From assembly GCA_021738535.1 (NCBI GenBank), contig JAIPBU010000014.1, positions 12,411 through 76,410 of the forward strand: DNA of 64,000 bases, given 5' to 3'. Of this stretch, positions 3,044-54,485 are shown piece after piece (the first letter of the stretch is position 1; every line of letters begins with the position of its first letter). This DNA is from Bacteroidales bacterium (GTDB lineage: Bacteria; Bacteroidota; Bacteroidia; Bacteroidales; VadinHA17). Below the pieces are notes generated by a model, which saw nothing but the letters and a program-made list of their open reading frames with translations, did not search any database and was not told where the DNA came from. The position numbers were made by a program, and so were the translations under genes.

Positions 3044-4990
3044 ATGATTCCCCACAACACGGTAGAACAAATACTCGATGCTGCACATATAGAGGATATT
3101 GTGCAGGAATTCGTCAATCTCAAAAAGAGGGGCGTCAACTACATCGGGCTGTGTCCTTTCCATAACGAAAAGACACCTTCGTTCACCGTGTCCCCGTCCA
3201 AGGGTATCTTTAAATGTTTTGGCTGCGGCAAGGGCGGCAACTCCGTTAACTTCATCATGGAGCATGAATCCCTCAGCTATCCCGAGGCCCTGCGCTACCT
3301 GGCAAAGAAGTATAATATCGAGATCGAAGAAAAGGAACTCACGGCTGAAGATATCGAGAAGAAGAACGAACGCGAAAGCATGCTGGTCCTTTCTTCCTAT
3401 GCCGCACGGGTCTTTGAAGAAAACCTTTTCGAAACCGAAGAAGGAAAATCGATCGGACTCTCATATTTCCGGGAGAGGGGATTCCGGCAGGAGACCCTCA
3501 AAAAGTTCAATATCGGCTACAGCATCGATAAGTGGGAATCCTTTACCAAAAAAGCTCAGACTGACGGCTACAAGATCGATTACCTTGTAATGACGGGATT
3601 GACAATTAAGAAAGAGGAAAAAACCTTCGACCGCTTCAGTGGCAGGGTCATGTTTCCCATTCATTCACTGTCGGGACAGGTACTGGGCTTTGGCGGACGC
3701 ACACTGAAGAAAGATACCAAGGCAGCCAAGTATCTTAACTCACCTGAGTCGGAGATCTATCATAAGAGTCGCATACTCTACGGCATCTACCACGCCCGCA
3801 AGTCAATCATGCAGGAGGATAAGTGTTTTATCGTTGAAGGTTATACCGATGTCTTATCTCTCCACGAGGCTGATGTTCAGAATGTTGTTGCTTCATCGGG
3901 GACTGCCCTGACGCGCGAACAGATACGGCTGATCAAACGATTCACATCCAACGTTTCAATTCTTTACGATGGCGATGAGGCAGGTATCAAGGCATCGCTC
4001 AGGGGAATAGACCTCGTTCTTGAAGAAGGGATGAACGTGAAAGTAACGGCCCTGCCTGATGGCGAGGACCCCGATTCATTTTCGAAGAAAAAAAGCAACA
4101 CCGAGTTCAGGGAGTATATCAACGAGAACGAAACCGACTTCATACGTTTCAAGACTAAGCTGCTGGTAAAAGAAGCCGAGGGAGACCCTGTAAAACGGGC
4201 AGGACTCATACGCGAGGTAGTACGGTCAATAGCTGTTATCCCGGAGATAATCACCCGCACAGTCTATATCCAGGAATGCAGTACACTGCTTAATGTAAGT
4301 GAGCAGGTCCTTTCTTCCGAGGTTGGCAAGCTAATGAGGCAGAAGGCTTTCAAGGACAGGAATCGTTATCCCGGTCCCGCCGACCTGCCCGAGGTCAGCA
4401 GGAAGAAAGCAGAAGCGGCTAAGCCTCCTGAGGGATCAGCTTTCTCGGAACGTGCACTTACCAGGCTTTTGCTGAAGTATGGCAGCGAGGAGTTTGAAAA
4501 GGTTGAGCACAAGGAAGAAGGTACGGAGGAAATAATCTCTGTGGCCCAGTATATTGTTAACGAGATAAAGGAAGACGAGCTTGAATTTTCTGAATCTGTT
4601 TACAAAAAGATCTTCGATGATTACTCGTTTCATATCAGTGAAGGGATATTTCCAGGCGACAAGTTTTTTGTCCTGCACCAGGATCCTGACATAAGCAGCA
4701 TCTCAGCCGACCTTTTATCAGAAAGCCACATTTTAAGCACGATCTGGACCCAGCACAATGCCTATGTAGAAACTGAAGAAGAAGTATTAAAGGAACTTGT
4801 GTCTGAGAGCGTGCTCAAGTTCAAAAGCGACAAGATACAGGGCATGCTGCGCGAGATCAAAAAGCAGATCAACGACTCAGAAGCAGCAAAGAACACCGAG
4901 ACCACCAACGACCTCCTCAAGCAGCACCAGGTCCTCTCCGCCATGCTCAAAGAAATCTCCAAACAACTCGGCAACCGAATAGTCCTGTAG
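3044..4990 (+). CDS. dnaG: DNA primase
   Basis: CPFH...CFGC zinc finger, GRVMFPI, KYLNSPE, TOPRIM VEGYTD and YDGDEAG, GEDPD. Confidence 0.97.
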   Translation: MIPHNTVEQILDAAHIEDIVQEFVNLKKRGVNYIGLCPFHNEKTPSFTVSPSKGIFKCFGCGKGGNSVNFIMEHESLSYPEALRYLAKKYNIEIEEKELTAEDIEKKNERESMLVLSSYAARVFEENLFETEEGKSIGLSYFRERGFRQETLKKFNIGYSIDKWESFTKKAQTDGYKIDYLVMTGLTIKKEEKTFDRFSGRVMFPIHSLSGQVLGFGGRTLKKDTKAAKYLNSPESEIYHKSRILYGIYHARKSIMQEDKCFIVEGYTDVLSLHEADVQNVVASSGTALTREQIRLIKRFTSNVSILYDGDEAGIKASLRGIDLVLEEGMNVKVTALPDGEDPDSFSKKKSNTEFREYINENETDFIRFKTKLLVKEAEGDPVKRAGLIREVVRSIAVIPEIITRTVYIQECSTLLNVSEQVLSSEVGKLMRQKAFKDRNRYPGPADLPEVSRKKAEAAKPPEGSAFSERALTRLLLKYGSEEFEKVEHKEEGTEEIISVAQYIVNEIKEDELEFSESVYKKIFDDYSFHISEGIFPGDKFFVLHQDPDISSISADLLSESHILSTIWTQHNAYVETEEEVLKELVSESVLKFKSDKIQGMLREIKKQINDSEAAKNTETTNDLLKQHQVLSAMLKEISKQLGNRIVL

Positions 4991-7547: not shown

Positions 7548-7590
7548 AAACTCATTCTCAACTCACTCAAACTCATTCTCAACGCTTTCT
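7548..7590 (+). repeat. 10/11-mer array (caactcattct/aaactcattc), copy 1
   Basis: aaactcattctcaactcactcaaactcattctcaac. Confidence 0.85.
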
Positions 7591-7620
7591 CTATTATCTC
7601 TCAAGCTTGCACCTATACTG

Positions 7621-7965
7621 CTATCTTCTCGCATGCTCAAGACAACCGGCACAAAGCCTTATCTCCGGTCTTATTTTCAATCTTTCGGTAGGTATATCGT
7701 TATGACATTTTATGCATACACCAAAGCTGTCATCATTCTTCATTTTGAGAATGTTTTCCAGCTGGGCCAGCCTGTTGCGGCTGTTCTGTATGCTGGCATC
7801 ATAGATACTTTTATTATTGATGGCATCCATTCGTGAGATCCGACCAATGGCACTGTCAGGCTCCACCGGCTGAGTAAACTCCTTTAGCTCCTCAATCTTT
7901 CTTTGCAGCTTCACCATCTCCTTCTTGATGATATCCACCAGTTCTTTTCTTTCTTTATCAGTCAT
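7621..7965 (-). CDS. TraR/DksA C4-type zinc finger protein
   Basis: PDSAIGRISRMDAINN, FGVCIKC...ERL..RP..RLCAGC. Confidence 0.9.
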   Translation of the reverse strand: MTDKERKELVDIIKKEMVKLQRKIEELKEFTQPVEPDSAIGRISRMDAINNKSIYDASIQNSRNRLAQLENILKMKNDDSFGVCIKCHNDIPTERLKIRPEIRLCAGCLEHARR

Positions 7966-8039
7966 TATCAATCTTAAAAACTCAAAAATACAATTTTAAG
8001 CAGACACTTCCCACCTACTATCATTCCATAAGCTCCCAT

Positions 8040-8091
8040 AAACTCATTCTCAACTCCCTCTCAACTCATTCAAACTCACTCTCAACTTTCT
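8040..8091 (+). repeat. 10/11-mer array, copy 2
   Basis: aaactcattctcaactccctctcaactcattcaaactcactctcaactttct. Confidence 0.85.
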
Positions 8092-8128
8092 ACTCGTCTG
8101 CTGCCGGTCTTTGCTTCCAGATAATTAA

Positions 8129-8200
8129 GGTCTGTCAGCAAATCCCGGGTTGTTCAGTCGTGCACTGCACTCCTTCACAACAAAACCGGCTCCACCGTTT
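8129..8200 (-). ncRNA. Candidate structured RNA/REP-like motif, copy B
   Basis: Minus strand: acgg-tggag-ccgg, gttgt-GA-ag-ga[gtgca g tgcac]ga-ct-GA-acaac, ccggg...cagacc; compensatory C-G to T-A change relative to copy A. Confidence 0.4.
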
Positions 8201-8232
8201 CCCAGCAGACAATCCCCTCCCACAAACAACCT

Positions 8233-8270
8233 AAAACTCATTCTCAACTCCCTCTCAACTCAATCAAACT
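8233..8270 (+). repeat. 10/11-mer array, copy 3, just 3' of the four-helix-bundle gene
   Basis: aaactcattctcaactccctctcaactcaatcaaact. Confidence 0.85.
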
Positions 8271-8290
8271 CCTGCCTGCCGGCAGGCAGG
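8271..8290. repeat. Perfect 20-bp palindrome cctgcctgccggcaggcagg
   Basis: Self-complementary; interrupts the array (caaact|palindrome|cattctaaact). Confidence 0.9.
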
Positions 8291-8294
8291 CATT

Positions 8295-8660
8295 CTAAAC
8301 TTTCCTATCCAACGCCTTCCTCAAATTACTCAGCATAAACGAAACAATATTCGCCTCTTTCCTGAACTCTTCAATATATTTATCTTTCAGGTATCCGAGG
8401 TCATTACTTAAAATCAACTGATTAATATTTTCCATTAGGCTTGAGTAAGCAATATTATAGAAATGTTTCTGGTCTTTCTTTGAAGCCCGGGAAGAGCCTT
8501 CTGCGATATTCGAGCAGACAGACATAGAGGATCTTCTCAGTTGGTTGGTAATTCCAAACTTTTCATCATCAGGAAATTCTTTGGTCACAGTATATACTCT
8601 GCGAGTATAAATTCTTGATTTCTTCCATACATCAAGCTTTTCAAAATTGAATGTGTACAT
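8295..8660 (-). CDS. Four helix bundle protein (TIGR02436/PF05635), copy 1
   Basis: FEKLDVWKKS...FPDDEKFGITNQLRRSSMSVCSNIAEGSSR...FYNIAYSSLME...DLGYL. Confidence 0.93.
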   Translation of the reverse strand: MYTFNFEKLDVWKKSRIYTRRVYTVTKEFPDDEKFGITNQLRRSSMSVCSNIAEGSSRASKKDQKHFYNIAYSSLMENINQLILSNDLGYLKDKYIEEFRKEANIVSFMLSNLRKALDRKV

Positions 8661-8737
8661 TTTGGTTAATTTTAATTAATACAGCGAGTTAACAACCTAA
8701 ATATATAAAGATTAATTCAAATATTAATCTCTCCTCA

Positions 8738-8789
8738 AAACTCATTCTCAACTCACTCTCAACTCATTCAAACTAATTCTCAACTTTCT
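8738..8789 (+). repeat. 10/11-mer array, copy 4, 5' of the four-helix-bundle gene
   Basis: aaactcattctcaactcactctcaactcattcaaactaattctcaactttct. Confidence 0.85.
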
Positions 8790-9447: not shown

Positions 9448-10095
9448 ATGACAAAAAGAAATCACATATCAAGCTCAAATAGTCGGCAATCTGCAGTCCG
9501 CAGTCGGCAAGATAAGGAGATGAACTTAAACAACTCACCTCTCACCTCTCGTCCTGAGCGAGCCCAGGAGGCGAGTCGAAGGGCTCACCTCTCACCGCTT
9601 GATGCCCACTGGTATGCAATATATACCCGCGCCAGAACAGAAAAAAGATTGCACGACAGACTCCAATCCGAAGGCTACGAAGCATACCTGCCTCTTGTAA
9701 AGACCCTCCGCCAGTGGTCCGATCGCAAAAAGTGGGTAGAGGTGCCGTTGTTAAATTCGTATGTTTTCGTACTTACCCATCCGGAATATCTAAGAGATAT
9801 AATAACGCTGGAAGGAGCAGCCAGGTACATCAGTTTCGAAGGGAAGCCTGCTGCAATTCCTGAAAAACAGATAGACAATCTTCGATTACTGGTAAACAGC
9901 GAAGCAAATATTGAAGTAACCGGTGAACGATTATTACCCGGCGACCCCGTTGAAGTAACACACGGCTCCCTCCGCGGTCTCTGTGGTGAATTAATAAAGC
10001 TAGGAAACAAAAACAAGGTAGTGGTCCGTATCGACAGACTTGATCTTAACCTTGTTGTCAAAATACAAAAGGCGTTCCTGAAAAAGCTCAGGTAA
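9448..10095 (+). CDS. upxY: UpxY-family (NusG paralog) transcription antiterminator with a repeat-derived N-terminal extension
   Basis: WYAIYTRARTEK, YLPL...RQWSDRKKWVEVPL..SYVFV, KOW motif GDPVEVTHGSLRGL. Confidence 0.9.
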   Translation: MTKRNHISSSNSRQSAVRSRQDKEMNLNNSPLTSRPERAQEASRRAHLSPLDAHWYAIYTRARTEKRLHDRLQSEGYEAYLPLVKTLRQWSDRKKWVEVPLLNSYVFVLTHPEYLRDIITLEGAARYISFEGKPAAIPEKQIDNLRLLVNSEANIEVTGERLLPGDPVEVTHGSLRGLCGELIKLGNKNKVVVRIDRLDLNLVVKIQKAFLKKLR

Positions 10096-10187: not shown

Positions 10188-10866
10188 ATGGATGATGTAG
10201 ATAAGTCAAAACCAAAACGTGTTGCAATAATGCAACCATATTTCTTTCCATACATAGGGTATTATCAACTTGTAGCAGCTGTTGATGTTTTCGTATTTTA
10301 TGATGACGTTAGTTTTATCAAAGGAGGATGGATAAACAGGAATAGGATTTTATCGAATAATAAAAACGGATATTTTACGCTACCATTACAAAAAAGCAGT
10401 TCAAATAGAAGGATAAATGAAATACTAAGTTTAGATTATAGTAATAATTTGGATAAGACAATAAAACAAACATATAGTAAAGCTCCATATTTTCATGATG
10501 TTTATCCATTATTAAGAAGCATTATTTTTTCGGAAGAAAACTCAATTTCAGAAATATCAAGACGGAGTATAACCAATGTGATAAAACACCTTGGATTAGA
10601 GAAGGAATTTCTCGTAAGCTCAGAGGCAAGGGTTTATCAAAAGATGCTAGAATAATTAAGATATGTGGAATATTGGATGCCGATGAATTTTTAAATTCTA
10701 AAGGCGGTAGAAAACTTTATTCCAAAAAAAGATTTTGCAAAAGAATCACTTTAAACTAAAATTCCTTGAGCCCAAAATGAAAAGATACAAGCAGTTTGAA
10801 AATAAATTTGAGATGGACCTGTCAATTATTGATATCTTGATGTTTAATGATGCTAAAATCCTTTAA
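10188..10866 (+). pseudogene. WbqC-family protein, frameshifted
   Basis: AIMQPYFFPYIGYYQL...GWINRNRI. Continues in shifted frames as KGLSKDARIIKIC...GGRKLYSK and LKFLEP...DLSIIDILMFN, stop at 10866. Confidence 0.85.
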
Positions 10867-11321: not shown

Positions 11322-12134
11322 ATGGCAAAACTAAGTAGCTCATTTAGGATATATATCTATCAAATACTTTTTTTAACCATAGTTTTTTCAGGATGTACCA
11401 GCACAGAAAAGTTAACCTATCTCAACAACCTCCCCGAAACCTCCGAGACCCAATACTTCCCTGTAGATGTTCCGGATTACAAGATACAATACAGGGATAT
11501 TCTATACATTACAGCTAAAGCAATGACCCCTGAAGGTGCGATAGTTGGTTTATTACAAGATATATCAGGAGCCAGAAATCAGTATTTCAGAGATGAGGCA
11601 AGCCAGTACATAATGGGTTATAATGTTGATGAAGGCGGTTATATTTATCTCCCGGTAGTTGAAAAAGTGCAAGTTGCGGATAAAAGCATAGAAGAAGTTA
11701 GAATAATTCTGCAGGAGGAAGTTGATAAGGTTTTTAACAATGCCTATGTAGAAGTTAAGCTTTTAAGTTTCAAATTCACAGTTCTCGGTGAAGCAAATGC
11801 TCCGGGCACTTATGTTAATTACAATAACTATTTAACTGTTCTTGAAGCAGTAGGACGAGCAGGAGGGGTTAGCGATTATGGCCGGCGAGACAGAGTCCTT
11901 CTCATTCGCCCCACAGATGACGGCAGCAAAACCTATCGCATCAATCTTCAGGACAAAGATTTGCTGACGTCAGAAGCCTACTTCCTGCAACCAAACGATG
12001 TAGTTATCATAGAACCTGTCAAGCACAAGATATTCAACATGAACCTACCAACATTCAGTTTTGTACTGACATCAGTTACAAGTGCGATAACAACAACATT
12101 ACTACTAATTAATTTCTTTGGTAATTCAAACTAA
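11322..12134 (+). CDS. wza: Polysaccharide export lipoprotein
   Basis: Lipobox FSGC, G.I.LPVV.KV.VA, TVLGEANAPG, LEAVGRAGG, LQPNDVVII. Confidence 0.9.
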   Translation: MAKLSSSFRIYIYQILFLTIVFSGCTSTEKLTYLNNLPETSETQYFPVDVPDYKIQYRDILYITAKAMTPEGAIVGLLQDISGARNQYFRDEASQYIMGYNVDEGGYIYLPVVEKVQVADKSIEEVRIILQEEVDKVFNNAYVEVKLLSFKFTVLGEANAPGTYVNYNNYLTVLEAVGRAGGVSDYGRRDRVLLIRPTDDGSKTYRINLQDKDLLTSEAYFLQPNDVVIIEPVKHKIFNMNLPTFSFVLTSVTSAITTTLLLINFFGNSN

Positions 12135-12175
12135 GAGTACAGTGTTTAGAGTACAGTGTTTAGCGTATAGCGTTT
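12134..12175 (+). repeat. G-rich heptamer arm (agagtac/agtgttt/agcgtat)
   Basis: Six in-phase heptamers starting in the wza stop codon. Confidence 0.9.
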
Positions 12176-12223
12176 TTGGATATGGAATTTTATAATAATG
12201 TTTCTTAAGTCAATTTCAGCTAG

Positions 12224-12601
12224 GTGATTATTACCAGGTTTGAGGATTTAGAAATTTGGAAGTTGGCACGAGAACTTTATAAATTTGTTTTTAATATTAC
12301 TTTAAGAGAACCATTTTGCCGGGATTTTAAACTGCGGGATCAGATAAGAAGTTCTTCCGGTTCAATATCCGACAATATAGCCGAAGGTTTTGAACGCGGA
12401 GGAAACAAAGAATTTATACAATTCCTTTTTACCGCTAAAGGTTCCTGTGGAGAAACACGCAATCAGTCTTACAGAGCATATGACAGTGATTACATCACAC
12501 ATGATATACTTAATGAATTACTGGAGCGCACCGATAAGATATCACGAAAAATAGTAAGTTTGATAAAAAAGCTTAAATCCTCCTCAAACAGAGGAATTTA
12601 A
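12224..12601 (+). CDS. Four helix bundle protein, copy 2
   Basis: RFEDLEIWKLAREL...DQIRSSSGSISDNIAEGFERGGNKEFIQFL..AKGSCGETR. Confidence 0.93.
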   Translation: MIITRFEDLEIWKLARELYKFVFNITLREPFCRDFKLRDQIRSSSGSISDNIAEGFERGGNKEFIQFLFTAKGSCGETRNQSYRAYDSDYITHDILNELLERTDKISRKIVSLIKKLKSSSNRGI

Positions 12602-12630
12602 TTTGATTAATATTAAACCTATATTTATTA

Positions 12631-12676
12631 TACTCATTACGCATATAACGAAACTCTGAACGCTTTACGCTAAACG
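12631..12676 (+). repeat. C-rich heptamer arm, reverse complement of 12134-12175
   Basis: tactcat tacgcat ataacga aactctg aacgctt tacgcta aacg. Confidence 0.8.
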
Positions 12677-12687
12677 TAAATAATCCT

Positions 12688-15183
12688 ATGAACCAGAATA
12701 CAAGTAATATCCCCCAATCCCCTCCACAAAACCCCGGCTATCCCCCTCCCGGCTACCACCCCTATGCCTATGACCCTTCCCTGTTTAAGGAGGAAGAGGG
12801 CATCGACTTCAAACGCTACTTCGCTTTATTCCTGAACAACTGGTACTGGTTCGCCATAGCTTTGTTTATTGCTTTGAGCATTGCCTATGGAATCAACCGG
12901 TGGTCGGAAGAGATTTATACAGTTTCTGCTTCTTTGCTTATAGAGGATGATGAGTATTCAGGAGAACTGAGCAGTGCCGAAAGATTTATTCCGGGGAGTG
13001 AGATTTTTAGCAGTAGGCAGAATCTTCAAAACGAGATTGGGATACTTAAATCTTTTTCATTGAATTACAAGGTGATGAAGGAGTTACCTGAATTCTGGGT
13101 TACCTATATTGCTGTAGGAAGGAGGGGCATAGCAGAGAGCAGCCAATATGAGAATACGACTTTTAAAGTGTTTTTCGATTCTCTCGAACACCAAACAAGG
13201 GGTCGTAGGATTAATATTAAAATTACATCCGATGACGAATACATTATAAGTATAGGTGATACAATTAAGAAAGAGATGAGCTTTGGTGAACGCTATACTG
13301 ACAAAAGTAATGATTTCATTATAGTCAAACATAATGATTTTATATATAATGAAGATAAATCAAACAAATACTATTTCTGGTTCAATAGCCTGGAAAGCCT
13401 GGCAAATAAATACAGAAGTAAACTCAGTGTATCCGCGATTGAAGAAGAGGCAACTTTAGTAACATTGACAACCAGAGGTTCAAACAGTGAGCAAGAAGCT
13501 GACTATCTTAACACATTGATGGATGAATATATTGACAGAGGATTAGATATTAAGAATGCCACTGCAGACAGTACCATATTATTTATTAATAATCAGTTAG
13601 GTTTTATTACTGATTCATTGAGAAAGGCGGAAAACAATCTTGAGAATTTCAGACTTAATAACGAACTTATCGATCTTAGTTCTGAGGCTTCTTTGTTGCA
13701 GACCAGAATAGAAAGGTTTGAGAATGAAAAATACAGCATTGAGTTTGAGAAAGACTACTACCAATATTTACTTGAATATATTGATTCAAGAGATGAGTCA
13801 GGTGAAATAGTATCGCCTTCTCTTGTTGGCATTACAGATCCTACTCTTAGCAAATTGGTAAATGAGCTTGTAGAACTTCAACAGCAGAAGAAACAAGTAT
13901 CTTTTAGCCTCAGGGATGATCTCCCTGCGGTAAATCTTATAAATGAACAGATAGCTGATGCCCGGAAGATCCTTAAGGAGAATGTTGAAAACAGTCTCAG
14001 TAATGCTACAAAGATGCTTGATGATGCAAATGTAAGAATAGCAAGAGTTGAGTCAGAGATTCAGAAACTGCCGGGCACAGAAAGGAAACTTATTAATATT
14101 CAGCGCAAGTTTGATCTTAATAATACAATTTATAATTACCTTCTCGAGAAAAGAGCAGAGGCAGGAATTGCAAAAGCATCGAATGTATCGGACAATAAGA
14201 TAATTGATGAAGCAAAAGCGTTTAATTCTTCACGAATAAAGCCCAAAGAAAGACAGAATTATTTAGTGGCTCTTATTTTTGGGTTGTTTATTCCTGCAGG
14301 GTTAATGGTAATATTTGATCTTCTGAATAATAAAATAATAGATAGGAAAGACATTGAAAAGGCAACTGATATACCCATATTAGGTTTTATTGGACATAGT
14401 GATGCAAAAACTGAAATCCCGATTATTGACAATCCCGGATCAACCCTTTCTGAGTCTTTCAGGTCAATCCGTACAAGGTTAAAATATTTATCCAATAGTG
14501 GTGCTTCAAATGTGATTACTATTACCTCAACTGTCAGCGGCGAAGGCAAAACATTTATATCGATAAATATTGCTGCTATTATAGCTATGCTTGGGAAAAA
14601 GGTGCTATTAGTAGGTCTTGATCTTAGAAAGCCCAAACTTCATAGAATCCTTAATGCAGATAACAGTCTAGGTCTTACATCATATTTAGTTGATGAAGCT
14701 GATTATAAAGACATAGTATTTGAAACAAAAATTGAGAACTTGTTTTTTACACCATCAGGGTCGGTTCCTCCCAACCCGGCAGAATTAATTGAATCAGATA
14801 AGATGGTCAGTTTCTTTAAAAAAGTCAAAGAGGAGTATGATTATATAATTATTGATACACCTCCCGTTGCAATAGTTACTGACACCTTATTGCTTGCACC
14901 ATATGTTGATATTAATCTGTTTGTTGTCCGGCAGCGTTATTCATCGAAAAATACATTAGATCTTATTAACGATCTAAAAGAACAAGGGGAATTAAAGAGC
15001 TTGGCTCTACTAATAAACGATATTAGTCTCTCAGGATACTATGGATATGGTTTAAGATATGGGAATACTCTTGGATATAGAGGCTATTATTATGGATATA
15101 ACCTATATGGCGAATATGGATACAAGAGATATGGTTATGGGAATAAAGGACAAGATTATTACTCAAAACAGGAAGAGTGTTAG
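12688..15183 (+). CDS. wzc: Polysaccharide co-polymerase / tyrosine autokinase
   Basis: Two TM segments, coiled coil, ESFRSIRT, SGEGKT, DLRKP, DTPP, Tyr-rich C-terminal cluster. Confidence 0.93.
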   Translation: MNQNTSNIPQSPPQNPGYPPPGYHPYAYDPSLFKEEEGIDFKRYFALFLNNWYWFAIALFIALSIAYGINRWSEEIYTVSASLLIEDDEYSGELSSAERFIPGSEIFSSRQNLQNEIGILKSFSLNYKVMKELPEFWVTYIAVGRRGIAESSQYENTTFKVFFDSLEHQTRGRRINIKITSDDEYIISIGDTIKKEMSFGERYTDKSNDFIIVKHNDFIYNEDKSNKYYFWFNSLESLANKYRSKLSVSAIEEEATLVTLTTRGSNSEQEADYLNTLMDEYIDRGLDIKNATADSTILFINNQLGFITDSLRKAENNLENFRLNNELIDLSSEASLLQTRIERFENEKYSIEFEKDYYQYLLEYIDSRDESGEIVSPSLVGITDPTLSKLVNELVELQQQKKQVSFSLRDDLPAVNLINEQIADARKILKENVENSLSNATKMLDDANVRIARVESEIQKLPGTERKLINIQRKFDLNNTIYNYLLEKRAEAGIAKASNVSDNKIIDEAKAFNSSRIKPKERQNYLVALIFGLFIPAGLMVIFDLLNNKIIDRKDIEKATDIPILGFIGHSDAKTEIPIIDNPGSTLSESFRSIRTRLKYLSNSGASNVITITSTVSGEGKTFISINIAAIIAMLGKKVLLVGLDLRKPKLHRILNADNSLGLTSYLVDEADYKDIVFETKIENLFFTPSGSVPPNPAELIESDKMVSFFKKVKEEYDYIIIDTPPVAIVTDTLLLAPYVDINLFVVRQRYSSKNTLDLINDLKEQGELKSLALLINDISLSGYYGYGLRYGNTLGYRGYYYGYNLYGEYGYKRYGYGNKGQDYYSKQEEC

Positions 15184-36042: not shown

Positions 36043-36161
36043 TATCATTAATTTTTTAGTTTTCATTCTAGTTCACTTTATAGATACACAATAAATGAAT
36101 AAAAACAATTATCTATCCATACATTAGTAACAAGCACAAAATCAACATTTTAATATATTTT

Positions 36162-36189
36162 CTCATCGCTCACCTCTCCCCTCTCACTG
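36162..36189 (+). repeat. C-rich heptamer array (ctcatcg ctcacct ctcccct ctcactg)
   Basis: Same family as 9534-9597, 52581-52656 (reverse complement) and 54514-54572. Confidence 0.75.
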
Positions 36190-36397
36190 CTTTGAATTTT
36201 GTAGCATCGTAAGTTATTGACAGGTAGTTAGCTTACTGTCAAAAAACAATCCATGGTTGCACCTCTAAAAGATGCAACCTTTTTTATTATCTTACAGTCT
36301 TAATTTCACCTTGCTTTGCTATGCTTTCATGAATCTTAGGAAACATGTTAATTATGGCCGAGATAGGCATCAACATTTTCACCAAAACTCAACCGCT

Positions 36398-39300
36398 ATG
36401 GAAAGGCCTGTGGTAACCGGAAAAAGGAAAAAGTCTTATTCCTCATTCTTATTCAGGGCATTATTGATTTTCTCTATAATCTTAATGAGCTTCAAGGGAT
36501 ATGCTCAACCCTCATGGGATGCTGAACCAACATTGACGGAGATAAATGCATTAAATGGCATTTTAACCGTTGATTTTGATGTGAATTGTACAGTTTATTA
36601 TATTATAGACAGATATATTACTTTTCCTAAAGATCCTGCAACCATTAAAAATTTTTCTTCATTGCCTCCTGATGGTAATTCTGGAGGTTTTAGGGGTGGG
36701 GGATCTTTTACTTATACTGCAAGCGGTAGTGTTTCCCATCTTGCAGAACACTTTGTGCCTTTAGATATAAGGTCAGATGTACATACGCTACATATTGTTG
36801 CTGAAACCACACCAGGCAACTTTTCTGCAGTTGATACTATAAACTTTACAACTGATTACTGTCCAACAATTTCTCCTTTAACTGCATTGACAAGTACATC
36901 GAAATGTGTAAACAACCCAGCAACTAAAACATATAACTTTGTTGATCTTTCTCCACCAGAGAATGTACTAAAAGGTTGTGAATGGACTATTGATTGGGGA
37001 GATGGGTCAGCAGTGTATAATTATACATCTTCTGATAATGGTGATGTTCCTCCAAATCAATCTCACGATTTTGTTAATCATGATTCATGTTATTTTGAAG
37101 TCTTATTGACAGCGACCAATATTGAAGGTTGTGAGACAATCGGGGGGTTATCAAAAATTGAAACACCAATTCTTGCAGGACGGGATGATGATATGGATGG
37201 AAATGGAGAAATGCTTCTTGTTAATCTTGATAACGGAAGTCCTGATACAATCAAAGTTTGTGAAGGAACAGAAGCCTTTATTACATTACAGGATGCCGGA
37301 ACATGGGATTGTGATGAGACCTTTAAAACTTATCCCCCGGGTGAGATTAATGCTAATGACAGGGATCTCCAATTCGTTTATGGAATGCATCATCAGACCC
37401 AGGCAGTAGAAAATACCATAACTGGTGACATTTCAATAACTGGTAGTTATCCCGGAACCGCGAATACTACAAGTGGTCATGCCTCAGGCATCTATAATAT
37501 AGATACTGATGTTATGTCTCCAATCACTAACCCAAATACAAATAGCGACTTGATCCGTATACCACCAACAGCCCAATATGGGGAGTATATGCATGTATAT
37601 CTTAAAAATTGGAACAAGTGTAATCCGTATTCCGGCGATCCATGGGATGGTACTGCTGTTTGGGATTCTATTGTAATCTTTATTGAACAGGGACCTATTG
37701 CTGATGCAGGTAGTGATTTTTCAATTTGTGAGGATGAAACTGCTAATATGAATGGATCCATTCATTCCGCAGCAACCTCAGCAGAATGGACAACAACAGG
37801 TGATGGCTCTTTTACTAATGAGACAAGTCCGGATAATGCAGTTTACACACCTGGAGTTAATGATATTTCTGCAGGCTCTGTTGATCTGGTTTTACATGCT
37901 TATGGTATTGGATTATGTCCTGAGCATACAGATACGATGAGGTTAACATTAGATCCTCTTCCTGCGAAACCTACTATTTCAATTACAGTTGGAGCAAATG
38001 ATTTTTGCGATGATGATGCTACATCAATGACTCTTTCATCAACTGTCTCTCCTGATGGAACATATCGCTGGTATAAAGATGGAATATTTACGGGAGATGT
38101 TACTCAAGATATTGTGCTTAACGACTGGACCCAGAGCGGTGATTATACAGTTGAGGTATTTGGAACAACTGCTAATTCATGTCCAAGGGAGTCGGATCCT
38201 TTTACCGTTAACATTGGTCAACCTGCTACTGTAGACGCTGGACCAGCTACAGCGGAAACCTGTTCGGATACACCTTATAGTACTTCGGGTTCTTTCGGGG
38301 GAAGCGCTACATCTGTTACGTGGACTACTTCGGGTGATGGTAACTTTGATAATACCGGGAATCCTACAACAACTTATACTCCGGGTTCGGATGATATAGC
38401 TGCAGGGACAGTTACTCTTACCCTGACAACTAATAACCCTTCTGGGCCTTGTCCGGCTGTTTCGGATAATGTGGTTCTTACTGTTACAACTGCTCCTACA
38501 GCCTATGCGGGTGCTGATGCCTTTATTTGTGAAACAGAGAATTACCAGGTAACAGATGCTTCTGTTGCCAATGAAAACTCATTTTCATGGGCACTGACAT
38601 CAGGATCAGGTAGTATTAGCAATACATCAATAATTAATCCTACTTATAACCCAGCTGCAGCCGATGCTGGTACTACAGTGCAGATGAGACTGATCGCGAC
38701 CGGTAACGGTTCCTGTGCAGATGCAACCGATGATATACTGATATATGTCGATCCTGAACCAACTGCCTCTGTTGGTCCGGACCAGCAAATATGTGATGCC
38801 ACTACCGCAACTCTAAGTGGAAATACTCCTGTAAATAATGCAAGGGGAGAATGGGTCTATTCAAGTAACCTGGTGTTCCATGAGTCTTTCAGGGCTTCTG
38901 CAGATGGTGATATTGATGGAAGAAACTGGAATCTGAATGTAAGTGCTCTAAACATTATTGATCCCAATGATTATTGTGAGGTTAGATCAAATCATTTTGA
39001 GGCCCAAGACATAGATGGTGAGGGTGTCTGGGAAACAGAGGAAATTGATATATCCACTTCGGGAAATATAAGAATAAGTGTATCATTACCTAATAGCTAC
39101 AATTTAGATAACTCTGATTATATCAGATGTTTTTATATTTTGGATGGAGGTTCTGAAGTGTTATTGAATAATGGAGAGCATTTCAATGATTATTCTAGTG
39201 AATATGCTACAGCATCAGGACTATCTGGTAACACACTAAAGATTGTAATTAGATTTCAAAATGATGGTGGATCTGAAGAACACTGGTTCGATGATATTTT

Positions 39301-42300
39301 TGTATGGAAGGATGATGGAACAATAATACCATCAATTATTGATCCCGATGATCCCGGCACAACAGTTTCAGGTATAAACCAGGGAGTTAATGAATTCGAT
39401 TGGATAGTATATTCAGAATACGACGGTTGCGATCCCGCAACTGCTACTCTTACCATCACCAGGGATATCCAGCCTGATGCAGCTACAACAGGTGGACCCC
39501 AGGAAGATTGTGAAACAAATTCATTCACTCTTACCGGTAATGCTGCTACAGATGGCGGATCAGGTCTCTGGACTCATACTGCCGGTCCTGCAGGATACAC
39601 AATTACCGACAATACTGATCCGGGGACTACAGTAACAGGACTTGATTATGGCACCCATACTTTTACATGGACCATTTCCAGTGCCCTTGGTATCTGTTCA
39701 GATACCCAGGCAAGCATGGATATCACACGTAATGAGGATCCTGCTCCTACTATTGCAGCTGATGCAGGTCCGCATTGTTATAATTCATCCGTGCTTATTA
39801 CCGGAACACCCAACCTTGGAGTGACAGCAAGCTCTGTATCAACTCATACCTGGAGCGGATCAGGGGCTGCATATCTTAATTCAACATCGGTGCAGAATCC
39901 TACCTTTACGGCGCCTTCTGTATCAAGCCCGACGGATTTTGACCTTATTTACACTGTTACAGATGATAACGGATGTATAGGGGTTTCGGCTACATTCACA
40001 ATTTCTGTATACCCGCACGTGGAAAGCGCCAACATTGGCACCGATCAGAATATTTGTGCAAGCACAAGCACCAACGTACAGGTAGCTATTACAGGTGGCA
40101 TAGGTCCGTATACAGTTGAATATGATGTTACGGACTCCGGAGGAACAACTACCCTGACAGAGAATAATTATACTTCGGGTGATGATATTGCAACAGCCGT
40201 TCTTACTGAAAATACAACATATACCCTTGTATCAGTAACTGATGCAAACGGTTGTACAGCAACTAACCTTACAGGAAGTGCCGTAATTAATGTGGGGGTC
40301 CTGCCCGACAAGGCAACCCTGGCTCCCGTTGTAACACCAATATGTGAAGGAACAAATGCACGGTTGCAGATAGTGATAACCGACGGAGTGCCGCCCTTTG
40401 ATGTTACCATAGATAATGGTGTTGGTACTTTTTCAGTACCGGGATTCTCTTATACCTATGACCTGGGTGCTATCGCAGCCGGCTCACATGATTATAACAT
40501 AACAGGAATAGTCGACGATTGTGGCAATTCATTTGGTGACCTGGGATCAACTGCAACAGTAGTTGTTAACAGTAATCCTGATCTTAGTGACGTGTCAACA
40601 ACTATTTGCAGTGATGAGCAAAGTTCTGTTAACCTGGCAATAGATAATGCAGGTGCATTCGGAATATTATCCACTACCTATAACATTACCAATATTGCTA
40701 ATAATGGCCTGTCCCCATCAAACGGAAGTCCGGGTACAGGAACGGGATTGCCTTCAAGCGAGATTGCTGATGATGCATGGACAAATAAAACTGCTGCCAA
40801 TGTGGGTGTAGTTTATACAATAGTACCGGTGAGTGACAAAGGATGTACAGGCATTGCCGAAGACATAACTCTTACAGTTCAGCCGGAGCCTGACCTTAAT
40901 GTATCTGATGTATCAGTTTGCAGTGATGCCCCGACAGGCATAACACTTACAGATGCAGATGGCATAGCCACTTCGTTTAATATAACTTCGATCAACCAGG
41001 GAGGACTTACAGCTTCGGCAGGAGCACCTGCTACAGGCACTGGCTTTGCAGCTGGAGAGATCTCTGATGATGCCTATACCAACCTTACGGGAGCAGATGT
41101 TGATGTAACATATACAGTTGTACCTGTGAGCACCAATGGTTGTGAAGGAGATCCTGAAGTGATTACTCTCACTGTAAAGCCCGAACCGGTAATTACGGCC
41201 GGACAAAACCCGGCTGCATGTTCAGGCAATGCACTTGATTATCAAATCCTGCTCGATAATTTCACTAACCCTGGTGATAATGTAACATTTACCTGGGGTG
41301 CTCCTACATTGAATCCTGTCGACCCGGGATTTACAGGAGGCACGGCCAGGGTGGCACAGTCAGCAGCAAATATTACAGATACATTTACAAATACAACAGG
41401 AGCCATCGGAACAGCGACCTATACTGTAACACCATATTACAACGGTTGCGAGGGCGATCCCATGGATATTGTTGTACAGGTGGGCCCAGAACCGGTTCTC
41501 GATCCCAACCTGGATAAATTTGCCTGCAGCGATACACCAATCGCATTAACATTGCAGGAAGAAACAGGATCTGTAACACCTTCACGTTACAATATTATAA
41601 GTGTTACGGTCGATCCTGATCTTACAGCAGGCGGAAGCAATGCTGCCATACCGGAAGCCAATGCAAACGCTTCTTATCTTGAGAACGACCATTATACTAA
41701 TACATCAGGATCTAACCAGGATGTGGTATACCGTGTGCAACCGATACTCGATCCCGATTGCTTCGGTGACCCGGTTGATATAATAGTTACCATAAGACCT
41801 GAACCGGTTATCCAGCCTGTGCAGGTAAAGACAGTTTGTAGCGGCGTAGCGGTTAATAAGGAAATATTATTACTGCCCGTAAACACACCCGCAGGAACAA
41901 CATTCGACTGGCCACAGCCTACTATGTCGGATGGTTCTACACAGGGAACAGCAGGAGTTGGTGTTGCTGCCGATCCGGCAGGGACATTCCATATAACCGA
42001 TGTGCTTTCAAACTTCACCGGTGCGGATATTACAGCAACATATTATGTTACACCAACAAGTGCCAACGGATGTGTTGGTGAGGAAGTAGCTGTTGAAATA
42101 ACGGTGCAGTCGCAGCCGGTTACTTCAGTTATTACGGGTGAGTCAACCCTCTGCGTAGGTGCCGAAAACGAAGTATACTCGGTGGACAATACTCCGGGGT
42201 CATCATATAGCTGGACAGTTCCGGCTAATATGACTGTAGTTTTTGATGACAATGTAAATTTCATAATTGTTGATGCAACTGCTGCCGGAAGCGATAATGT

Positions 42301-45300
42301 TGAGGTTGTTGAAACAAATATTGACGGTTGTGTGGGTCTTCCCGAAGTATTACCAGTGACGGTATCCAACTATGCCACGGCAGAAACGGTCAGCGGACCG
42401 GATGTAGTCTGTAAGGGTGAAACAAATGTGGCTTATTCAGTGCCTGACAATGTAGGTTCAACTTACCAGTGGTACGTGCCCGCAGGTGTAACAGTAACAT
42501 CTGACCCGGCAGCCCATGAGATCTTTGTTGATTTTAACCTTGATTCAGGCGGCGACATATCCGTCGTTGAAACAAACTCCTCGGGATGTACAACTGTTCA
42601 TGATCCCATTACCGTAACCGTTAATTCTATTAACGCAGGTAGCATTGGAAGCGACCAGGCAGTTTGTTCCGGAGTTGATCCTGCTGCTTTTATAAGTAAT
42701 ACAGATGCTTCAGGTGATGGAACAGTAACCTACCAGTGGCAGGAGAGTACAGATAATGTTAATTTCACCGATATAGGTGGTGCAACCAATTCTACTTTTG
42801 ACGAAGGGATTATCGCCCAGACTAAATATTATAAGCGTATTGCTACCAGTTCACTCGGTGGAAAAGATTGTTCTGCAGAAAGTAACGTCGTTGCAATATA
42901 CCTCAACGAGGTTGATCCGGGACAGGTAGGAAGTGACCAGACTATATGTGAAGGCGATTTTGCCGCCGGTCTGACCAGTATTACCAACGGAAGCGGCAGC
43001 GGAGCAATTACTTACCAGTGGCAGGACAGCCCTGATAATATTACATTCACCGATATACCGGGTGAAACATTCTCTGCACTGTCGCCGGGATCACTGACCG
43101 CGGACAGGTACTACAAGAGAATTACAATAAGCACATTGCTTGGCACTCCATGCGAAGCCGAAAGTAATGTTGTTACTGTCACAGTAAACAACTTTGACCC
43201 TGGCAGCATTAGTGCCGCTCAGACAATATGTGAAGGGGATACCCCTGTTGCATTTACCAGCGTAAGCCCAACAGGTGACGGGGCATTCAGTTACCAGTGG
43301 AGGCAGTCGACTGATGGTGTGACTTATACCGATATAGGCGGAGCTCTTAATGAAACCTATGCCCCCGGTGCCCTTACACAGGATACATGGTATAAGAGAA
43401 TTGTTACATCAAGTCTTAACGGTACAGACTGTATCGAAGAAACAGTCCCTGTTAAGGTTACTGTAATTAACTTTAACCCCGGAAGTATATCAACAGACCA
43501 GACTATTTGTGAAGGCGGAACACCGGCTGCATTGAACAGCGTGGCACCGTCAGGAGATGGTGCATTTACCTACCAGTGGCAGGAGAGTATCGACGGTAGT
43601 GCCTATACAGACATAATCGGCGAAACAGGCGCCACGTTTAATCCACCTGCTCTAGCACAGGACACCTGGTATAAGCGTATTGTAACTGCAAGCCTTAATG
43701 GTACAGATTGCGATGATGAGACTAATGCTGTTAAGATTACGGTCAATAATTTTGATCCGGGAAGTATATCCGCGGACCAGACCATTTGCGAAGGAACAGC
43801 ACCGGCGGCACTGACGAGTGTTACTCCGACAGGAGACGGTACATTCACTTACCAGTGGATGAGCAGTATCGACGGTACAAACTTCAACAATATAACAGGT
43901 GCTACTGCAGAAACTTACGGTCCGCCGGCATTAACCCAGGATACCTGGTATAAACGCGCAGTGACATCTACACTTAATGGTGTGAATTGTACTGAAGAAA
44001 CCAATGTTGTAGAGATAACAGTAAACAATTTCAACCCCGGTAGCATAAGTGCAGACCAGACAATATGCGAAGGAGCTAATGCAAATCCGTTTACAAGTGT
44101 TACACCCACAGGTGATTTTGCAACTGTAGGATATCAGTGGTATGAGAGTACAGACGGCACCACGTTCAACCCAATAGGCGGAGCAACAGCCGAAACTTAT
44201 GATCCGGGTGCACTTACTGTTGACACATGGTATAAGAGAGAAGTAACAGCCACACTTAACGGAGTTCCTTGTATTGAAGAGACAAATACTGTTAAGGTGA
44301 CTGTTATAAACTTTGATCCTGGAAGTATTGATGCTGACCAGACTATATGTGAAGGAAGTAATGCGAATTCACTTACAAGTGTTTCACCTACTGGAGACGG
44401 ATCGTTTACTTACCAGTGGTATGAAAGTGCAGACGGCAGTACATTCACACCTCTTGCAGGAGTAACCGGCGAGACATATAACCCCGGAGCTCTTACAGCT
44501 GATACATGGTATAAGAGGGAAGTAACTGCCACGCTTAATGGTCATACCTGTACTGAAGAAACAAACGTAGTCAGGATAACAGTAAACAATTTCGATCCGG
44601 GAAGCATTAGCGCTGACCAGACTATCTGTGAAGGCGATACACCTGTTGCACTGACGAGTGTTGATGCATCAGGAGACGGTGCGTTTGGCTATCAGTGGCA
44701 GATCAGTACCAATGGCTCGACATATTCAGACATTGGAGGAGCAACAGCAGCTACTTATGCACCGGGAGCACTTACCCAGGATACATGGTATAAGCGGATT
44801 GTAACTTCAAGTCTTAACGGAACAGATTGTATCGAAGAGACTGCGCCGGTCAAGATTACGGTTATCAATTTCACTCCTGGCAGTATATCAAGCGACCAGA
44901 CCATTTGTGAAGGCAGTACACCTAACCCGCTTACATCAGTCAGCCCGTCAGGCGACGGCACATTCACTTACCAGTGGCAGGAAAGCGCTGATGGTATTGC
45001 CTATAGTGATATTGGTGGAGAGACAGGAGTGACTTTCTCACCACCTGCACTGACAGCAGACACATGGTATAAGCGTATCGTAACTTCAAGTCTCAATGGC
45101 ACAGATTGCGATGATGAGACCAATGCTGTTAAGATAACTGTGAATAATATGACTCCAGGAGTAATAGGTACCGATGAGACTATTTGTGAGGGAGATGTGC
45201 CTACACCACTAACGGTTACTACAGCAGCCACTGCAGATGGTACTATAACCTACCAGTGGCAAAGCAGTACTGATGGTACTAACTTCTTTAATATAACAGG

Positions 45301-52580: not shown

Positions 52581-52656
52581 AGAGGAGAGAGGTGAGAGCG
52601 GAGAGGAGAGTGAGCGGTGAGCGAAGAGCGATGAGAGGGGAGATGTGAGAAAGTGA
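52581..52656 (+). repeat. G-rich heptamer arm (agaggtg/agcggtg/agcgatg)
   Basis: Begins 11 nt after the giant-gene stop; reverse complement of the ctcacct family. Confidence 0.85.
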
Positions 52657-52662
52657 AAATTC

Positions 52663-52693
52663 AAAAGAGCTGCCAATAGTTTGGTGGCTCTTT
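52663..52693. terminator. Probable bidirectional intrinsic terminator
   Basis: aaaagagctgccaa-tagt-ttggtggctcttt between convergent genes. Confidence 0.75.
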
Positions 52694-52710
52694 ATCTTTT
52701 GACGAAGGTC

Positions 52711-53904
52711 TCAATAGAGGAATCCAAACAGCCAGAGGGGAATTCGGTTGTGTGTTCCGAATTCAATATTATCGGCCACTATATATGCATCCGGTAAAGA
52801 TGAGATCTGTTTATTTTTCTTATTTTTACCACCTATTTCCAATGTATATCTTTCATCTAAAAGGAGGTCACCCTGCTCTACGTATTCAACCTTGTTATTA
52901 TACTTAAGTTGATTGATTAGGAATGTTTCTCTTAAGGTTCCCTTTTGAAGAGTACCTGGTGACAGTGCATACATAATATTTGTATTCTCCATATAAATTT
53001 TATCGGGTTTCTGAAGTCTTGTGATTCCCTCCGCATCCCTGTAAATACTATTGATTAATCTGGCTTCCTGAAGGTAAACCAGATATGACAGAAGAGTTAC
53101 TCTGCTTATGCCCGCTCGTTCACTGAGTTTGCTGATATTGGGAATAAACGGGACGGATTCAGCTATTATCCTGATAAGTTTCCTGATTTTAGGAATGTGA
53201 CTGTTTTCGACTCCCCTTAAATTGGGTAGCTCTATCTCAAGAATCATATTGACAAGCTCTTCGATACGTTGATGATACAAAGCCTTTACCTCATTGAAGA
53301 AAGGATAATATCCATACTGCAGATATTTTTCGAAATGCTGTAAAGGTTTAATTTTTCCAAGAATATCACCTGAAATCTCAATGTGATTATTTAATATATC
53401 ATCTATCGAATAGATACTGAAATTTTTTCCTGTTGTCATACCAAGAAACTCCCTGAATGATAGTCCCTGCATTTCATATACTATGGCGCGTCTGCTTAGG
53501 TCGGCTCTTGAGTTGAGTATCTCGAGAAGTGAAGAACCTGTAAAAACGATATGCAGACCAGGGTAATCATCATAAAGGTTTTTTATTTCCTGAGCCCAAC
53601 CGGGATATTTATGGACCTCATCCAAAAAAAGGTGTTTCCCGCCTCTTTTAACAAAATGGTCGGTTAGAGAAGTGAGACTGTTTTTTGCAAACCACAGGTT
53701 GTCAAGAGATACATACAGTGCTGTTTCATCATTGAGATGGTTTTCCTTTAAATACTGCAGCATGATAGTGGTTTTTCCGACACCTCTTGCCCCTTTTATT
53801 CCGTAGAGCCTGTATTCCCAATGGATAGCATCCATACTACTTCGAATAAAGGTGGTGTCGGTTACAAGCAGCCTATTACGATATTTTTCAAAAAGTAAGT
53901 CCAT
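52711..53904 (-). CDS. AAA_14-family ATPase
   Basis: GARGVGKTT, FLDEVHKY, TGSS, DLSRR, KPDKIY..N, EIGGK. Confidence 0.9.
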   Translation of the reverse strand: MDLLFEKYRNRLLVTDTTFIRSSMDAIHWEYRLYGIKGARGVGKTTIMLQYLKENHLNDETALYVSLDNLWFAKNSLTSLTDHFVKRGGKHLFLDEVHKYPGWAQEIKNLYDDYPGLHIVFTGSSLLEILNSRADLSRRAIVYEMQGLSFREFLGMTTGKNFSIYSIDDILNNHIEISGDILGKIKPLQHFEKYLQYGYYPFFNEVKALYHQRIEELVNMILEIELPNLRGVENSHIPKIRKLIRIIAESVPFIPNISKLSERAGISRVTLLSYLVYLQEARLINSIYRDAEGITRLQKPDKIYMENTNIMYALSPGTLQKGTLRETFLINQLKYNNKVEYVEQGDLLLDERYTLEIGGKNKKNKQISSLPDAYIVADNIEFGTHNRIPLWLFGFLY

Positions 53905-53942
53905 GTTCAGTTAGAAATAGTCATACTACACAAAAATACAAA

Positions 53943-54026
53943 TGTTTAATCAATTAAACAATAAAACCATTAACATGTTTAATTTAAATAACATAATATG
54001 TAGTTATATGTTTAGTTGAATGAACA
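53943..54026. promoter_or_regulatory. Three 18-bp palindromic operator-like sites spaced 33 bp apart
   Basis: tgtttaatcaattaaaca (53943), tgtttaatttaaataaca (53976), tgtttagttgaatgaaca (54009). Confidence 0.6.
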
Positions 54027-54031
54027 TATAG

Positions 54032-54462: not shown

Positions 54463-54485
54463 AAGCCCGCATTCTTTGCAGGCTT
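54463..54485 (-). terminator. Intrinsic terminator downstream of the small-peptide gene
   Basis: aagcccgca-ttctt-tgcaggctt preceded by an A-run on the + strand (U-tract on minus). Confidence 0.55.

Follow-up and report, generated by a model that had tools for sequence, protein, structure and literature searches.

In a capsule locus of a Bacteroidales bacterium, the spacer between the polysaccharide export gene wza and the chain-length/tyrosine-kinase gene wzc is occupied by a small gene of the PF05635 family that is enclosed by two inverted arrays of short tandem repeats. The locus lies in a window of 64,000 nucleotides (contig JAIPBU010000014.1, positions 12,411 to 76,410), to which all coordinates given without a label refer. 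The reading we favor, which is drawn by analogy with ribosomal intervening sequences (IVSs) and held with about as much confidence as doubt, is that the spacer is filled by an IVS-type cassette, in which a functional four-helix-bundle (4HB) gene is looped in an imperfect stem of repeat arrays that would fold out of the operon transcript. The cassette would have no promoter of its own and would be transcribed together with the capsule genes. In the resulting operon RNA, the G/U-rich 5′ arm (12134–12185) would pair with the C/A-rich 3′ arm (12619–12671), looping out the 4HB message and putting the 3′ end of wza beside the 5′ end of wzc. By analogy with the 23S rRNA intervening sequence of Coxiella, the arm duplex is a likely RNase III substrate, and cutting would yield wza, 4HB and wzc RNA pieces with little harm to the host genes. 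Placing the G/U-rich arm first could conceivably also hide the C-rich, Rho-attracting arm until its partner is made. For the 4HB protein itself, binding to its own repeat arms is our best guess. The layout is not confined to this operon: cassettes of this little-described kind are widespread within bacterial operons.

The 553 nt between the stop codon of wza and the ATG of wzc (12688) hold a single open reading frame (ORF), 12224–12601 (Table 1), whose GTG start aligns with the ATG of its orthologue at L077 (L-labels denote individual loci and G-labels related genomes, with G000, 94.7% complete, being the genome of the window). Its product is a member of PF05635/TIGR02436, scoring above the curated cut-offs of both profiles: the match to Pfam PF05635 (23S_rRNA_IVP) has an E-value of 1.9e-31 and 108.9 bits (cut-off 33.8) over profile positions 1–105 of 106, and that to NCBIfam TIGR02436 ('four helix bundle protein') has an E-value of 8.6e-31 and 106.4 bits (cut-off 24). 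The protein also resembles PDB entry 2gsc_A (XCC0516) with an E-value of 1.2e-7, or 3.2e-29 with the family profile. The solved protein XCC0516 is a pentamer with 4HB subunits arranged in a ring, to which the window's protein is linked by sequence similarity only. On the 5′ side of the gene, Tandem Repeats Finder (TRF) reports for 12134–12175 a period of 14 (two heptamers), 3.0 copies, 89% matches and a score of 63. Because this span opens at 12134, the left array, which is rich in G/T and poor in C, begins at the last A of the wza TAA (12132–12134), overlapping the stop codon by its first base. On the 3′ side, the degenerate heptamers CATTACG, CATATAA, CGAAACT, CTGAACG, CTTTACG and CTAAACG give way at ~12677, 10–11 nt 5′ of the wzc ATG. 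A first-pass annotation of the window had described a heptamer arm, a 4HB gene and an inverted arm between wza and wzc, the left arm opening inside the wza TAA and the right arm stopping just short of the wzc ATG; the coordinates, Pfam, TRF and inverted repeats bear out this description in all details. A motif scan found no TAnnTTTG promoter motif in the leader 12176–12223. Rfam returned no rRNA or other family at gathering score in the window, and three of the window's 4HB proteins matched no defence-system family in PADLOC.

Table 1 Features of the wza–wzc junction and of the other PF05635 loci of the window.
Feature	Coordinates	Strand	Basis
wza-type polysaccharide export gene, 270 aa	11322–12134	+	Pfam Poly_export, E 5.4e-11; SLBB_2, E 3.9e-10
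Left (5′) arm: six GTNNAGN heptamers, forming three 14-nt units	12134–12175	+	TRF; direct-repeat families D1/D2
Leader, left arm to start codon	12176–12223	+	12177–12185 prolongs the closing stem by minimum free energy (MFE) pairing with 12619–12627
4HB gene, 125 aa, PF05635/TIGR02436	12224–12601	+	Pfam, NCBIfam, PDB match, L077 alignment
A/T-rich trailer, stop codon to right arm	12602–12631	+	12619–12627 pairs with the leader
Right (3′) arm: degenerate heptamers rich in C/A and inversely complementary to the left arm	~12632–12677	+	Inverted repeats I1, I3, I11
wzc-type chain-length/tyrosine-kinase gene, 831 aa	12688–15183	+	Pfam Wzz, GNVR, AAA_31
Third PF05635 gene, 8295–8660 (L036), with direct rather than inverted flanks	7549–8785	−	TRF, arm scores
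Cut-down fourth PF05635 gene, 54032–54301 (89 aa), with ATPase gene 52711–53904	52581–54571	−	Inverted heptamer arrays around both
Second armed cassette: PF05635 gene 54825–55193 between inverted 8-mer arrays	54784–55304	−	TRF, duplex test

PF05635 proteins resemble Avd of phage BPP-1, and Avd proteins of diversity-generating retroelements have a related small 4HB fold (PMC10053308). The gene could accordingly be regarded as a leftover avd, a notion that we find hardly credible. Neither template nor variable direct repeats are found, the flanks being inverted short arrays instead, and a PDB search with a profile built from 15 family members did not recover Avd at E-values up to 1. The candidate was excluded because G000 has no match to the reverse transcriptase family RVT_1.

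The two arms of the wza–wzc cassette are complementary at 94% over 17 nt (12158–12174 with 12659–12675) and, in an alternative register, at 78% over 23 nt (12144–12166 with 12653–12675), and can therefore be paired in at least two registers, offset by 14 nt. The energy of the arm duplex is −33.4 kcal/mol, compared to −23.9 ± 3.6 in dinucleotide shuffles; only 4 of 500 shuffles reach it, in agreement with the arm pairing inferred in the first-pass annotation. Folding of 12120–12700 gave −122.3 compared to −110.2 ± 6.5 for shuffled sequences (z = −1.86; 5/100 shuffles as good). In the MFE structure, 12134–12185 pairs with 12619–12671 through 36 long-range pairs, the left-arm bases having a mean pairing probability of 0.49 with the right arm. 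This predicted fold would place the wza stop near the wzc start, as the first-pass annotation had anticipated. The arm score of the cassette, determined by local alignment as described below, is 29, above the 99th percentile (26) of 3,385 control ORFs of G000. The signal for this cassette alone is moderate.

The arms vary at the strain level. Two additional heptamers (14 nt) follow 12650 in a contig from another study's RNA library, and in a DNA contig of run X2, from a sister lake sample, 12611–12683 is exchanged for 75 other letters while the gene and wzc are ~90% identical. No contig of four sequencing runs skips the cassette, a result that, as it concerns contigs only, has no bearing on the absence of empty or excised forms. 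Two 151-nt RNA-library contigs meet at 12625/12626, which we do not read as an RNA end.

The association of PF05635 genes with repeat arms was surveyed using loci drawn from 40 related genomes, extra copies in three of those genomes and metagenome contigs. For the arm score, the 200 nt preceding the gene were locally aligned with the reverse-complemented 200 nt that follow it and the best alignment was taken, 6-mer sharing between flanks being too noisy in A/T-rich DNA. Among 80 scorable loci from relatives and metagenomes, 55 exceeded the 99th percentile of controls, compared to 27 of 3,385 control ORFs from G000 (Fisher p = 4e-80). The same threshold was passed by 17 of 30 loci sampled evenly over Bacteroidota, with several more displaying shorter arms by eye, and by three of six 4HB genes on Nostoc, Anabaena and Calothrix plasmids, one of which lies between cas6 and cas4. 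The family-wide arm signal is very strong. Arms have a median length of 35 nt, with period 7 being the most frequent, and the layout is found in thiolase operons and between tRNA-like genes as well as between cas6 and cas4. At 49 of the 55 armed loci, G exceeds C in the upstream arm. An inverted repeat shows this 'G-first' polarity whichever strand is read, and the polarity characterizes the element rather than the direction of the gene. PF05635 is present in 112 of 151 sampled genomes of the phylum, often in multiple copies, and has members in Bacteroides thetaiotaomicron. Arm–gene–arm units form a large class embedded in Bacteroidota operons and also occur on cyanobacterial plasmids.

When left and right arms were compared across the 55 armed loci, the median score was 41 for the two arms of one locus and 17, equal to background, for a left arm set against the right arms of other loci; 1.1% of cross-locus arm pairs reach the self score. 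This specificity holds even at the orthologous site: the left arm of the window scores 14–16 against the right arms of L073, L084, L087 and L088, where genes 50–64% identical to that of the window occupy the wza–wzc spacer and each cassette is self-complementary at 31–41. Unit sequences vary by locus, yet both arms stay complementary, and the arms therefore co-evolve. The arms also travel with the gene. Among pairs at non-orthologous sites with protein identity of at least 80%, 8/9 have at least five common arm 8-mers, compared to ~9% of pairs at <40% identity. In G007, two copies with 93% protein identity have different neighbouring genes, and the homology between them sets in and stops at the outer edges of the TGGAATAn arrays, with no target duplication visible at these borders. 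Arm–gene–arm behaves as one unit, because close paralogues at unrelated sites share arms, which supports the cassette view first put forward for the wza–wzc spacer. The enclosed 4HB protein is under purifying selection and functional, as judged by ratios of nonsynonymous to synonymous substitution (dN/dS) for the three pairs with unsaturated dS, the remaining pairs being saturated: 0.059 for the window versus L077 (dS 1.39, near saturation), 0.084 for L073 versus L070 and 0.163 for L084 versus L087.

We compared the wza–wzc spacer across relatives. In agreement with the expectation that the two genes are usually adjacent, they stand side by side in 27 of 29 loci of related genomes, none of which has a match to the window's 4HB protein, and in the nearest genome, G013 (Wza 74% identical), the spacer is ~50 nt. 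Among 80 metagenome loci found with Wza, the spacer is ≤151 nt in 43, holds other genes in 2 and is cut off by an early contig end in 17; in 18, it contains a PF05635 gene, in every case on the same strand as wza. Two types of occupying gene can be distinguished, one 50–85% identical to that of the window with GTNNAGN-like arms (type A) and the other 33–37% identical with GCNNAGN-like arms (type B). In a Wza tree made with a quick method, the spacer states are intermingled, with L064 (type B) sister to L069 (type A; support 98). The L064 spacer contains a whole type-B cassette and, behind it, the final ~20 nt of a type-A gene together with the arrays downstream of that gene (95/107 identical to L073); here, a type-B cassette with its own arms displaced the left arm and most of the type-A gene, which amounts to a replacement. 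The spacer is therefore an insertion hot spot and not the site of a single clean insertion, as had been supposed. No empty site is close enough to define exact borders or a target duplication, G013 and L136 being too diverged or of another cassette type. At L067, the type-A gene is interrupted by two copies of a ~285-nt mini-element (L067:4017–4300 and 4398–4690). Both copies have perfect 13-nt inverted ends (GCCCTGTGAAATA) and code for a small GIY-YIG-like protein; G000 contains a similar gene, likewise small and GIY-YIG, between inverted flanks of its own (C23:1810–2124).

The orientation of the occupying genes bears on a further explanation, that the arms are recombination sites of an invertible segment acting as a phase-variation switch that alters read-through into wzc. 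Such switches are known for promoters of Bacteroides capsule loci, and the present capsule locus is headed by a NusG/UpxY-like gene and does contain a short segment flanked by inverted repeats. We nevertheless judge the switch very unlikely. The gene has the wza orientation in 18/18 occupied spacers; no strand-changing joint is seen in the contigs of the four runs, although rare forms may be missed in contigs; thiolase operons, a tRNA-like spacer and the cas6–cas4 spacer have the same layout; and arm sequences differ at every locus, leaving no common recombinase site.

Gene-less hairpins were also found in the spacer. In L061, L065, L068 and L071, a G/T-rich array is directly followed by its complementary array, with hairpin z scores of −3.5, −2.0, −4.7 and −4.8 and 0, 11, 0 and 0 of 200 shuffles as good, respectively. 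L136 corresponds to an L072-type cassette minus 454 nt, with one unit of each arm left as a 7-bp hairpin, whereas the spacers of G013, L074 and L076 are plain and unstructured. An array hairpin can therefore persist, or pre-exist, without a gene. The first-pass annotation had named relatives that lack the gene and keep both arrays unchanged as evidence against its reading. Part of this is realized, in that these four loci keep an array hairpin, but their unit sequences differ and the arrays are thus not unchanged. Such hairpins do not undo the cassette reading, because arms demonstrably move with genes.

The hairpins are nonetheless evidence for an alternative in which the array hairpin is a resident spacer feature of the kind formed by short tandemly repeated repetitive (STRR) sequences, stabilizing or processing the transcript, and the 4HB gene was captured in its loop, the arms belonging to the host site. 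In the Wza tree, L077 (type A) groups with gene-less L065, L068 and L071 (SH-aLRT, an approximate likelihood ratio test, 97), and the clade of the gene-less hairpins thus also holds an occupied locus; G000 has gene-less inverted array pairs of its own. Precedents include the 7-nt STRR tandem repeats that form a hairpin of unexplained function between cyanobacterial hupS and hupL (PMC2670836), and known IVSs, which take the place of the loop in an existing rRNA helix (PMC4990558). We consider this alternative quite unlikely, as paralogues at unrelated sites share arms with homology stopping at the outer array edge, the type-B gene of L064 came with type-B arms, and loss of the gene from a cassette explains L136 no less well than the opposite change does. 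The likeness to STRR, namely short tandem repeats forming a hairpin in an operon spacer, applies to the wza–wzc cassette of the window and to its gene-less counterparts at L061, L065, L068 and L071, and on Nostoc and Anabaena plasmids PF05635 genes sit inside STRR-like arrays. STRR are, however, described as gene-less repeats of filamentous cyanobacteria, whereas the present organism belongs to the Bacteroidales. A literature search found no paper linking STRR to 4HB genes.

Several observations agree with expression of the favored IVS-type cassette from the host operon. Both neighbours are co-oriented with the PF05635 gene at 59 of 86 loci, compared to 206 of 395 controls (p = 0.006). TAnnTTTG, the Bacteroidetes −7 promoter motif, is found within 120 nt upstream at 6 of 113 cassette loci, compared to 554 of 2,479 controls (p = 2e-6). 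Cassettes are thus mostly co-oriented with their neighbours and poor in this promoter motif. A gene for RNase III is present in G000.

Against an RNA-level role, a number of points must be weighed. At 27 of the 86 loci, the gene is not co-oriented with both neighbours. Transition mismatches between arms show no G–U bias (63 compatible with pairing in the sense strand and 66 in the antisense strand), and the energies of sense and antisense duplexes are no different (19 versus 13 of 32; Wilcoxon p = 0.36). Both tests are neutral and do not discriminate between selection on RNA and on DNA, so that a DNA-level role is conceivable. G-first polarity cannot tell which strand is transcribed. The stem of the wza–wzc cassette is imperfect, with a z score of only −2.6 for the arm duplex, and the RNA-library contigs at the cassette are short and unable to show RNA ends. 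In the survey, ~30% of PF05635 loci are without detectable arms, one copy in the window has direct repeats instead, and the control ORFs for arm scores come from a single genome.

These considerations bring in a DNA-based explanation, in which the 4HB protein together with its cognate arrays makes up a self-propagating system resembling repetitive extragenic palindromic (REP) elements and their REP-associated tyrosine transposases (RAYTs), with operon RNA effects being incidental. The arms would be hairpin or cruciform ends used for spread or maintenance, and gene-less 7/8-mer arrays would be non-autonomous offspring. That the arms move with the gene and that their mismatches lack G–U bias would both fit, as would the distribution of arrays in G000, which contains 388 strong short-period arrays dominated by periods 7 (138) and 8 (129). 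Gene-less arrays of cassette-arm unit families recur elsewhere in this genome: the 11-mer family of the copy at 7549–8785 at C23:82600, C2:12800 and C42:97600, and the AGAGGTG family at C50:40000 and C14:55400. Gene-less inverted 8-mer array pairs, 23–50 nt apart, are present in the window (58704–58757/58780–58850) and at C14:45808/45887, C23:94712/94781 and C57:81550/81652 of G000. The density of period-7/8 arrays also follows PF05635 presence within one genus. Among seven genomes (198–400 kb sampled from each, G000 whole), it is 7.8–10.8 per 100 kb in four with 4–17 PF05635 matches and 3.5, 0 and 1.2 per 100 kb in three without, a 3–10-fold difference. The three PF05635-free genomes, however, have a G+C content of 0.43–0.44 compared to 0.40–0.41 in the others and are perhaps one sub-lineage, so that the contrast may reflect a single evolutionary event.

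We regard this DNA-based explanation as unlikely. No nuclease or recombinase activity is known for a four-helix bundle of 120 aa, the G007 paralogues show no target duplication, the arm units of the wza–wzc cassette are unique within G000, and the 388 arrays comprise many unrelated units compared to only four PF05635 genes. In the REPtron, the RAYT, a Y1 (IS200-like) transposase gene, lies between inverted REPs. The present layout is similar to REPs or bacterial interspersed mosaic elements with their RAYT in placing a small gene between inverted repeat copies, in having gene-less repeats elsewhere and in the tracking of array density with the gene. It differs in that the enclosed gene is PF05635 only rather than a Y1 transposase, in its many unrelated unit families compared to one per genome and in its tandem-array arms compared to single palindromes. 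A broader proposal, which we consider doubtful, is that PF05635 proteins and short tandem arrays are the halves of one self-propagating system, each 4HB subfamily recognizing its own unit as RNA or single-stranded DNA. Arm–gene–arm would then be the autonomous form, gene-less arrays and hairpins in Bacteroidota and STRR in cyanobacteria would be non-autonomous descendants, and the rRNA IVS would be a special case residing in an rRNA helix.

The closest counterpart of the wza–wzc cassette is the ORF-bearing IVS in helix 45 of Coxiella burnetii 23S rRNA, such IVSs being also known from Leptospira and others (PMC4990558). There, too, a PF05635-family (S23p) ORF lies in the loop of a stem of terminal inverted repeats, 28 bp long and cut by RNase III, and the 5′ arm consists of tandem heptamers whose number varies among strains, parallel to the heptamers at 12134–12175. 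The Coxiella IVS is transcribed within its host transcript, as we suppose by analogy for the wza–wzc cassette, and the RNase III cutting shown for the former would likewise extend to the latter. In contrast to the rRNA IVSs described in PMC4990558, the present cassette lies between two protein-coding genes instead of in helix 25 or 45 of 23S rRNA, and both of its arms are repeat arrays. The Coxiella ORF is reported in the same source as decaying and probably untranslated, whereas the 4HB ORF here is under purifying selection.

PF05635 is among the commonest small families of Bacteroidota without an assigned function, and to our knowledge the rRNA intervening sequence is the sole context in which it has been studied so far. 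A literature search, which covered few subscription journals and no supplements, found no paper on repeat-armed 4HB cassettes in protein-coding operons. Added here are the gene-less hairpins, cassette replacement, G-first polarity and the link between PF05635 and genome-wide 7/8-mer array density. A gene-in-stem module within ordinary operons makes an rRNA curiosity a general class of operon-embedded elements. It also suggests a concrete, testable role for intercistronic repeat hairpins and bears on the purpose of IVS ORFs and the origin of STRR-type repeats. Close relatives differ in the state of the spacer (plain, hairpin only or either of two cassette types), and this state could therefore determine the ratio of wza to wzc expression. 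If the arms insulate the insert at the RNA level, they would constitute a natural design for housing a gene within an operon while avoiding polar effects.

All four PF05635 genes of G000 fall inside the window, within 47 kb. The arms of the second armed cassette (54784–54827, GTCAAGCR; and 55263–55304) are much stronger than those of the wza–wzc cassette, with a duplex energy of −52.9 compared to −25.9 ± 3.9 and 0/500 shuffles as good. The third gene (L036) is instead flanked by copies of the 11-mer array AACTCATTCTC at 7549, 8041, 8230 and 8739, with an inverted score of 16 and a direct score of 66, and has a GC palindrome after its stop. These four same-strand arrays bound three segments, namely a DksA/TraR-like zinc-finger ORF (about 7640–7970, minus strand), a 140-nt non-coding piece and the PF05635 gene, a layout that looks like a small cassette array with direct repeats as separators. 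The arrays around the truncated fourth gene are AGAGGTG (52581–52650) and CTCACCT (54521–54571). An AAA-type ATPase gene (436 and 397 aa, respectively) stands beside a truncated or weak PF05635 gene, within the same arms or spacer, at two unrelated places, L103:3747–6089 and 52711–54301 of the window. Array 52581–52650 serves a second purpose, as the 5,432-aa surface-protein ORF 36272–52570 is flanked by complementary heptamer arrays at 36161–36187 and 52581–52650, in this case in the opposite, 'C-first' order, with TCTCACC upstream and AGAGGTG downstream.

Further observations concern PF05635 loci in general. The genes cluster: in G013, the 200 kb surrounding wza (C1, 1.34–1.54 Mb) contain five of the eight listed, and in G007 (C9 and C8) five are on one 104-kb contig. 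One shared site is upstream of a gene whose product starts like a sugar-nucleotidyltransferase. A conserved heptamer, TCGCTGT, precedes the start codon of some PF05635 genes by 7–30 nt, across different subfamilies, at 9 of 113 loci, compared to 8 of 3,385 control ORFs (p = 5e-10); the loci are L033, L036 (window 8661–8720), L041, L045, L146, L153, L161, L173 and L174. A variant layout, comprising a G-rich array, the gene, a second G-rich array, a short loop and a C-rich array, was seen at L033, L038, L048, L054, L073, L089, L144, L146 and L192. Here, the lone C-rich arm could pair with either G-rich arm, forming a local hairpin or a gene-enclosing stem, and a switch between the two is possible. 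At L048 (G029:C126:4840–7901), the cassette has CAATGAW-type arms and lies between two sequences judged tRNA-like by appearance. Upstream in the capsule locus of the window, the NusG/UpxY-like gene at its head spans 9448–10095. The WbqC-like ORF 10188–10655 covers only profile positions 1–139 of 218 and is followed by a short ORF, 10735–10866; the WbqC-like gene at 10188–10866 may be split or frameshifted.

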